Below are positions 11,442 through 11,715 of a stretch of DNA of 64,000 nt, one piece after another. The notes under the pieces were generated by a model that was given only the letters and a program-made list of their open reading frames with translations, made no database searches and was not told the origin of the DNA. Source of the stretch: Amphiscolops sp. MND2022 (Eukaryota). The position numbers were made by a program, and so were the translations under genes. The DNA is taken from positions 30,754,001 through 30,818,000 of the forward strand of contig OZ076409.1 in NCBI GenBank assembly GCA_964187785.1. The letters are read 5' to 3'. How positions within the stretch are numbered: the stretch's first letter is position 1; every line of letters starts with the position of its first letter.

Positions 11442-11715
11442 TCAGGTATACCATAGAAATTTTTCACACCTTTTTCCACCGTAAAGTTCCGGACATTCAC
11501 ACGCGACTGTTTGTTGCTCGCTCTTCTAGGTAATAGCAGTAACCACCATTCATGCAATAACCTGTAAATTCTTCTGGACAAGAGTCTGTATTGTTCCCTT
11601 TGTTATTGGTCGTTTCGTTTTGAGAATTAGTAATTAATAATATTGGAGTTGTAAGAATTGCAACAATAAACGTGCAGGTCAAATTCACTACCCAAATCAA
11701 TTGAGTCCCGCTCAT
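11442..11715 (-). pseudogene. EGF-family growth-factor-like protein (4-bp duplication frameshift)
   Basis: Hydrophobic N-terminus, N-glycosylation sequons, then CPEEFTGYCMNGGYCYYLEE[QQTVA]CECPELYGGKRCEKFLWYT once one GCTC of the duplication at 11516-11523 is removed. Confidence 0.85.

Follow-up and report, generated by a model that had tools for sequence, protein, structure and literature searches.

A conserved gene for a predicted EGFR-ligand-type EGF protein in Polinton elements of the Amphiscolops sp. genome

The poxvirus growth factors (VGF, SPGF, SFGF, MGF and TPV-15L) are small virus-encoded proteins with one EGF domain of the EGFR-ligand type. They stimulate quiescent neighbouring cells and prime them for infection, and the same source treats EGFR ligands of viruses as a feature of the poxviruses (PMC8785968). 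The cellular EGFR ligands, such as EGF, TGF-alpha, epiregulin and spitz, have a common six-cysteine spacing and the residues Tyr/Phe13, Tyr37, Gly39 and Arg41 (PMC4914847, PMC1618406). A splice site between cysteines 4 and 5 is given as a hallmark of these ligands, as is an EGF module just before a transmembrane helix; Drosophila spitz, keren and gurken are ligands without that splice site (PMC1618406). EGF-type ligands have zero to two membrane regions (PMC4914847).

Polinton/Maverick elements (adintoviruses) have AGTAGT ends, terminal inverted repeats, a 6-base target-site duplication, an integrase, an A32-type ATPase and a protein-primed polymerase (PMC8097293, PMC8502044), and the 19.5-kb element P1 of the present report is likewise built. 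The accessory genes given for Polintons in the available parts of both papers are PLA2X, gasdermin, cupiennin, Oncoid, Bcl2 and IAP. The term 'EGF' is absent from the text of PMC8502044, its accessory-gene section and one supplement file, and from the main text of PMC8097293. A search of titles and abstracts of openly accessible papers found none on an EGF gene in Polintons.

The window analysed here, 64,000 nucleotides of contig OZ076409.1, contains two Polintons with a gene for a small protein that likewise has one EGFR-ligand-type EGF domain. The carrier is unlike a poxvirus in being a 19-kb integrating element with hundreds of germ-line copies. In contrast to the membrane-bound precursor VGF, the Polinton protein ends with its EGF domain, and compared with the cellular ligands the Polinton version lacks the cysteine 4-5 intron, the membrane helix and the cytoplasmic tail. 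We regard it as probable that this is a captured, intronless EGF gene whose product is predicted to activate the host EGF receptor and would thereby make neighbouring cells permissive for the element.

P1 is of the Polinton/Maverick type by its terminal repeats, AGTAGT ends, target-site duplication, integrase, ATPase and polymerase. The terminal inverted repeat in the window (11809..11944, minus strand) begins AGTAGT and is 92% identical over 138 bases to its partner at L061:2459, 7.5 kb before the window; the element measures 19,486 bases. Similarity to sister copies stops at 11944, an AGTAGT end, and is followed by a 6-base target-site duplication (11945..11950, plus strand) that is matched at the other P1 end. 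All further P1 genes in the window are read on the minus strand. Directly after the EGF gene lies an ORF (11030..11422; 142 aa in the sister copy L157) without Pfam match, and the same type of neighbour is seen in relatives from other assemblies. A conserved ORF at 10099..10698, also without Pfam match, is presumably exonuclease-like, judged by a DEDD motif. The packaging ATPase (Pox_A32, 8628..9353) has a Pfam E-value of 6.8e-5 and the retroviral-type integrase (rve, 6854..7837) one of 3.8e-12. The N-terminal part of the protein-primed DNA polymerase (1..2400) resembles the polymerase of another element, P3, and extends before the window. DNA_pol_B_2 is matched in P1 at L061:9253-9999 with an E-value of 3e-5, which is under the cut-off, and the polymerase of a distant group of elements, clade B, reaches 1e-10.

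Three further ORFs fit the structural genes of a Polinton in size and order and have no Pfam or PDB sequence match. That at 6014..6805, conserved across families, is presumably the minor capsid gene from its position. The one at 4326..5651 is probably the major capsid gene by size and position, and the one at 3898..4326 is assumed to encode a cysteine protease. The probable major capsid gene contains one in-frame stop, so that the P1 insertion is a decaying one in more than its EGF gene.

The EGF gene of P1 (11442..11715, minus strand) has its ATG at 11715 and its stop codon at 11442-11444, and this copy is broken. A frame-shifting 4-base tandem duplication (11516..11523) leads to a stop codon at 11497..11499 (minus strand) after 72 codons. 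Read unrepaired, these codons hold four cysteines, the remaining EGF motif lies in another frame and the six-cysteine ligand spacing is absent. The window gene measures 274 bases, compared with 270 in all 29 fetched sister copies in end-to-end alignments; the duplication is private to the flagged copy and is found in 0 of 29 sisters. It may be a real mutation or an assembly error. We predict the flagged copy to be non-functional.

Searching the genome at the DNA level with the P1 gene yielded 308 first-look candidates; 40 were scored and 30, including the window copy, were retrieved. An 89-codon frame is open in 28 of the 29 sisters and six cysteines are present in 25; because these are the best-scoring 29 of 308 candidates, the sample is skewed to well-kept copies and its share of open frames is an upper estimate. 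The sequence-only reading of this stretch had arrived at an 89-aa protein by removing one GCTC at 11516-11523. This is the natural product of the sisters, and the intact copies on which that reading depended do exist. It had also taken the gene to be hidden by the duplication. This is incorrect, since the breakage is restricted to the flagged copy and a relative in the second Polinton family of the same window, P2, is open. The description of the gene as terminal is right for P1, where it lies about 230 bases inside the AGTAGT end at 11944; in clade B the gene is internal, and it is therefore not bound to the terminus.

P2 (17546..31604, plus strand) has the gene order of P1. Its EGF-ligand-type gene (17986..18288, plus strand), with an open 100-codon frame, occupies the same position as in P1. 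The window copy lacks the first of the six cysteines, which is kept in the 16 closest sister copies. P2 is interrupted by a Gypsy element (19337-24707) whose LTRs are 99% identical and which has an open ORF of 1583 aa. At 29155-29948, nested direct repeats of 26, 54 and 106 bases overlap a lysine-rich repetitive ORF of P2. A third Polinton, P3 (45522-62079), is AT-rich with long terminal repeats, is unrelated and has no EGF gene match.

A search with the P2 gene gave 596 candidates; 150 were scored and 40 of these were chosen to cover divergent types. At least two element core genes lie within 8 kb downstream in 36 of the 40 sampled divergent matches; three of the exceptions (L067, L076 and L095) have no core gene and one (L083) has a single one. 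The sampled copies form seven families with EGF proteins 27–44% identical to that of P1. Altogether, the EGF gene is present in eight Polinton families of the genome, including P2 and the distant clade B. Clade B has another gene order, and its ATPase and probable capsid protein are 44–47% and about 29% identical to those of P1, respectively. Its EGF version comprises 82 residues and is the third ORF, adjoining the divergently read polymerase; of seven long stretches of clade B, five were found to contain core genes. Each core-gene family is paired with its own EGF family, with no resolution of the deep nodes in the trees. The Polinton EGF gene is a conserved one and extends well beyond the single flagged copy. 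At four loci (L073, L075, L133 and L138) two EGF gene copies are located 1.2–4.4 kb apart, in tandem or inverted.

The gene is a single open frame without intron, and the stop codon follows directly after the EGF domain. The cysteine spacing C-7-C-5-C-10-C-1-C-8-C is present in all 12 family representatives, as is the hydrophobic N-terminus, and N-glycosylation sequons occur in 11 of 12. Across families the apolar N-terminal stretch has 17–27 residues and the stalk 14–36. In clade A the apolar stretch of 18–27 residues is followed by a stalk of 22–36 residues and a free C-terminal EGF domain, and in clade B the two segments have 17 and 14 residues.

Between families, the 44-codon domain shows saturated synonymous differences (pS 0.72–1.10) and a pN of 0.17–0.36. 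In closer pairs dS/dN amounts to 0.78/0.04, 0.27/0.02 and 0.08/0.01. Three pairs of the L063 group show weak constraint or come close to neutrality (0.19/0.06, 0.09/0.09 and 0.04/0.05), as is expected if those pairs are decayed insertions. The EGF domain is under purifying selection between families.

Comparison with known structures and conserved positions supports an assignment of the Polinton domain to the EGFR-ligand type. On the open sister copy L002 the Pfam EGF model gives an E-value of 4.8e-5; several families score under the cut-off. A PDB sequence search with the open copy gave 34 matches, and 24 of the best 25 are EGFR/ErbB ligands or chimeras, the remaining one being an ant-venom EGF-like peptide. 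The first clear non-ligand match follows at an E-value of 0.014. The concern of the sequence-only reading that the best matches might be non-ligand EGF repeats is not borne out by this list.

Conserved residues of EGFR ligands are located at positions 13, 15, 16, 18, 37, 39 and 41, with an aromatic residue at 22 (PMC3554757). Positions 13, 16, 18, 37, 39 and 41 are of the ligand type in 10 of 10 family representatives, including the arginine at 41 in every one, and position 15 in nine. Position 22 is aromatic in three of the ten, P1 among them, and position 21 in all ten. Position 47, presumably a receptor contact, is Trp in all ten families compared with Leu in human EGF. The host ligand described below also has Trp, so that this residue speaks to receptor specificity more than to ligand status.

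A structure model built from 84 sequences has an EGF fold, with pLDDT values of 85–93 over the domain, and an N-terminal helix. The best match in the fold search is EGF bound to EGFR, and Notch EGF repeats rank fifth and sixth. In a viral fold library the named top matches are poxviral growth factors, none with an E-value below 0.001. An earlier model from 12 sequences had a pLDDT of 63 and no match under 0.001 in the viral fold search. In an atlas search all leads for the element protein stay below 0.9; the cellular protein P0060 leads to ligand clusters at 0.90–0.96. Two gene-structure hallmarks are missing from the Polinton gene, namely the cysteine 4-5 splice site and the helix after the domain. 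This is the pattern expected of a captured and truncated copy.

The probable source is present in the same genome. A profile search of 1.84 billion proteins gave 721 matches, and P0060 is among the best 150, which were examined. It has 237 residues with a signal peptide, an EGF domain, a membrane helix and a tail. The tail matches one place in the Amphiscolops genome (G000:C5:29806634-29819485; L186, L187), a host gene of six exons that encodes a signal peptide, a split EGF module, a membrane helix and a tail. The EGF module of this C5 gene is split between cysteines 4 and 5 by a phase 2 intron of 282 bases, and the encoded protein has the features by which Stein and Staros recognize ligands. 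No Polinton gene was found in the 20-kb stretch examined at this locus. A host-ligand pattern scan gave four matches, versus nine for the control; on inspection three of the four are real and one is not. Further EGF-type ligand genes of the host (L196, C7:57174871, and L197, C10:29281841) have a cysteine 4-5 intron and a downstream hydrophobic stretch.

The P1 domain is identical to the host C5 domain in 31 of 44 residues and shares its C-terminal signature; the other families have 20–28 of 44. Two outside rows, with 21–22 of 44, are level with the most distant families. In the C-terminal half, all eight families match C5 at 12–15 of 17 residues, and two other host ligands at 5–7. No candidate donor is singled out by the N-terminal half, and the N-terminal hydrophobic stretch of the Polinton protein shows no clear kinship with the host signal peptide. 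The differences between P1 and host C5 (pS 0.84–0.90, pN 0.19–0.20) are saturated at synonymous sites, as they are in all 12 representatives (pS 0.79–1.01). A recent re-capture by P1 is rejected on the basis of this saturation.

In a quick tree of 44 columns, 22 element-type rows form one group (SH-aLRT 87). Once the host rows are included, P1 and the host gene form a pair (88/93) and four cellular rows enter the now loose group. Trees of 44 columns are weak, and none of the topologies is rejected (p-AU 0.30 and 0.43), so that a single capture is neither proved nor rejected. Low phylogenetic signal is likewise warned of for EGF-type ligands (PMC4914847). Most likely, the mRNA of a spliced host ligand was captured long ago and its anchor and tail were lost, because the element gene is intronless and ends just after the EGF domain and the tail signature shared with the host. 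The poxvirus-like rows share 14–15 of 44 residues with P1, versus 31 for the host ligand. The Polinton gene is not a member of the poxviral family and probably goes back to a capture separate from that of the poxviruses.

Between host C5 and its ortholog P0060, 26 of 44 residues are identical in the EGF domain, 28 of 33 in the signal exon, 25 of 35 in the membrane exon, and 27 of 34 and 49 of 66 in the tail exons. Here the usual pattern is inverted, the EGF domain being less conserved than the signal, membrane and tail segments.

Related elements of other hosts likely carry the gene as well. A profile of 28 sequences matched 654 proteins of 937 candidates, and the best 120 (ENA entries) were examined. 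Among these 120, ligand spacing is present in 97 and the same kind of tail in 92, and their domains are 52–64% identical to the nearest family in the genome. For P0059 and P0153 the best matches in the assembly reach 52% and 46%, so that neither has a close copy there. Of eight longer relatives, six continue into the same neighbour sequence as the elements of the genome, which argues for an element origin in other hosts; P0124 does not, and P0060 is of the host type. Three loci came from a scan of viral contigs and 24 from one of metagenome contigs, and no element core gene was found at any of them. A giant-virus metagenome contig (L105:3948-4037) encodes a protein in which a hydrophobic stretch precedes a C-terminal EGF domain with a ligand-like end motif.

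Candidate receptors are present in the host. An L-domain search of the genome gave two matches among 11 candidates, on contigs C3 and C7, both best matching EGFR/ErbB, and the two genes have cysteine-rich exons downstream; they are EGFR-like by these two features. A full-length host EGFR protein was searched for and no match was found.

In the proposed mechanism, the captured ligand was truncated before its membrane anchor and a new N-terminal hydrophobic stretch would direct export. In clade A this stretch is more likely an uncleaved anchor, and in clade B it is possibly a signal peptide. The product would be exposed on the cell by its anchor, or else secreted or released, and the shedding step of the host precursor would not be needed. 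Activation of the host EGFR may then lead to proliferation, survival or recruitment of dividing cells, and dividing, surviving cells are what a nuclear DNA element would need to replicate and reach the germ line. We think it probable that the predicted ligand is an agonist. The push of host cells into cycle that was read from the P1 copy may be one outcome. At wounds of the acoel Hofstenia, nrg-1/egfr-1 controls where dividing cells lie, and their number is not raised (PMC13046036). A mitogenic outcome is thus no given, and recruitment instead of mitosis is possible.

Mode of action would also separate the protein from described accessory factors. Oncoids would act on Rb inside the cell, whereas the Polinton EGF protein would act on a receptor from outside. 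E2F-like sites are not enriched in P1 (6, where 100 shuffles gave 2.6 on average and at most 8), and no convincing LxCxE protein was found in the scanned stretches of P1, P2 and clade B. P3 has 13 E2F-like sites versus 1.8 expected, with a maximum of 6 in 100 base shuffles.

The Polinton gene would be a second, likely independent origin of a virus-type EGFR ligand, in a small integrating element and with the source host gene still identifiable. Animal Polintons are known almost solely from sequence and may or may not spread from cell to cell. A conserved gene for extracellular signalling is hard to explain in an element confined to copying itself within one nucleus, and therefore speaks for a phase of spread between cells. 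The host could also be affected by hundreds of dormant ligand genes in its genome on failure of element silencing.

Doubtful in our view is an extension of this reading, by which the mimic would recruit or activate EGFR-bearing stem or germ-line cells, so that the element reaches the germ line, and host ligand and mimic would be in a chase. If true, this would explain the hundreds of element copies. A chase is suggested by the host EGF domain, which matches its ortholog at 26 of 44 residues compared with 74–85% for signal peptide and tail, and by P1, which is still 70% identical to the host domain at saturated synonymous sites.

Agonism has to be weighed against an EGFR binder that acts as decoy, partial agonist or down-regulator and dampens wound or defence signalling. 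Everything that supports receptor binding fits this too, and a ligand that stays anchored in its producer cell could bind EGFR in cis. It is unlikely, since the domain retains all core ligand residues together with the tail of the host ligand and the viral EGF-like ligands described in the available text of PMC8785968 are agonists.

An attachment or entry factor, anchored in the membrane of particles and targeting EGFR-bearing stem or germ cells, is quite unlikely. The apolar stretch, stalk and free C-terminal EGF domain of clade A do resemble an outward-facing type II protein, and the gene is kept like a core gene in every family, the families having been sampled through the EGF gene itself. 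However, the elements are known here from genes alone, with capsid labels lacking Pfam or PDB matches. In clade B the apolar stretch is shorter, the stalk has 14 residues and the gene is located in the polymerase-adjoining block, away from the structural genes.

Cargo that benefits the host as a dispersed extra ligand is very improbable. It would agree with the hundreds of candidate copies and their mostly open frames, but constraint acts between element families over saturated synonymous distance, single insertions decay (the P1 and P2 copies and the L063-group pairs), and each core-gene family has its own EGF family.

A non-ligand EGF module for another protein contact, for which the common fold, a fold search that cannot separate the classes and the Pfam scores below cut-off can be cited, is made highly improbable by the single domain, the ligand spacing (12/12), Arg41 (10/10) and a host relative with the features of a ligand, and a functionless passenger is ruled out by selection.

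Two minor observations concern the elements carrying the EGF gene. The terminal repeat of P1 contains a stretch that resembles a tRNA and has A and B boxes (11806-11880 in the window and L061:2522-2585). With a relaxed threshold, but not with default settings, it is called by ARAGORN (as tRNA-Glu in L061), and there is no Rfam match; a comparable stretch upstream of the gene of the L073 family gives no tRNA call. Furthermore, P1 (L061:4386-4952, plus strand) and P2 (29949-30302 in the window, minus strand) contain a diverged gene for ribosomal protein uS5 (RPS2-like), with Pfam Ribosomal_S5_C over the cut-off and eukaryotic uS5 as the best PDB match (E-value 1e-10). It diverges fast even among P1-like copies. 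Genome-wide, 328 uS5 candidates with 28–100% identity are present, many of them about 15–17 kb from an EGF match.
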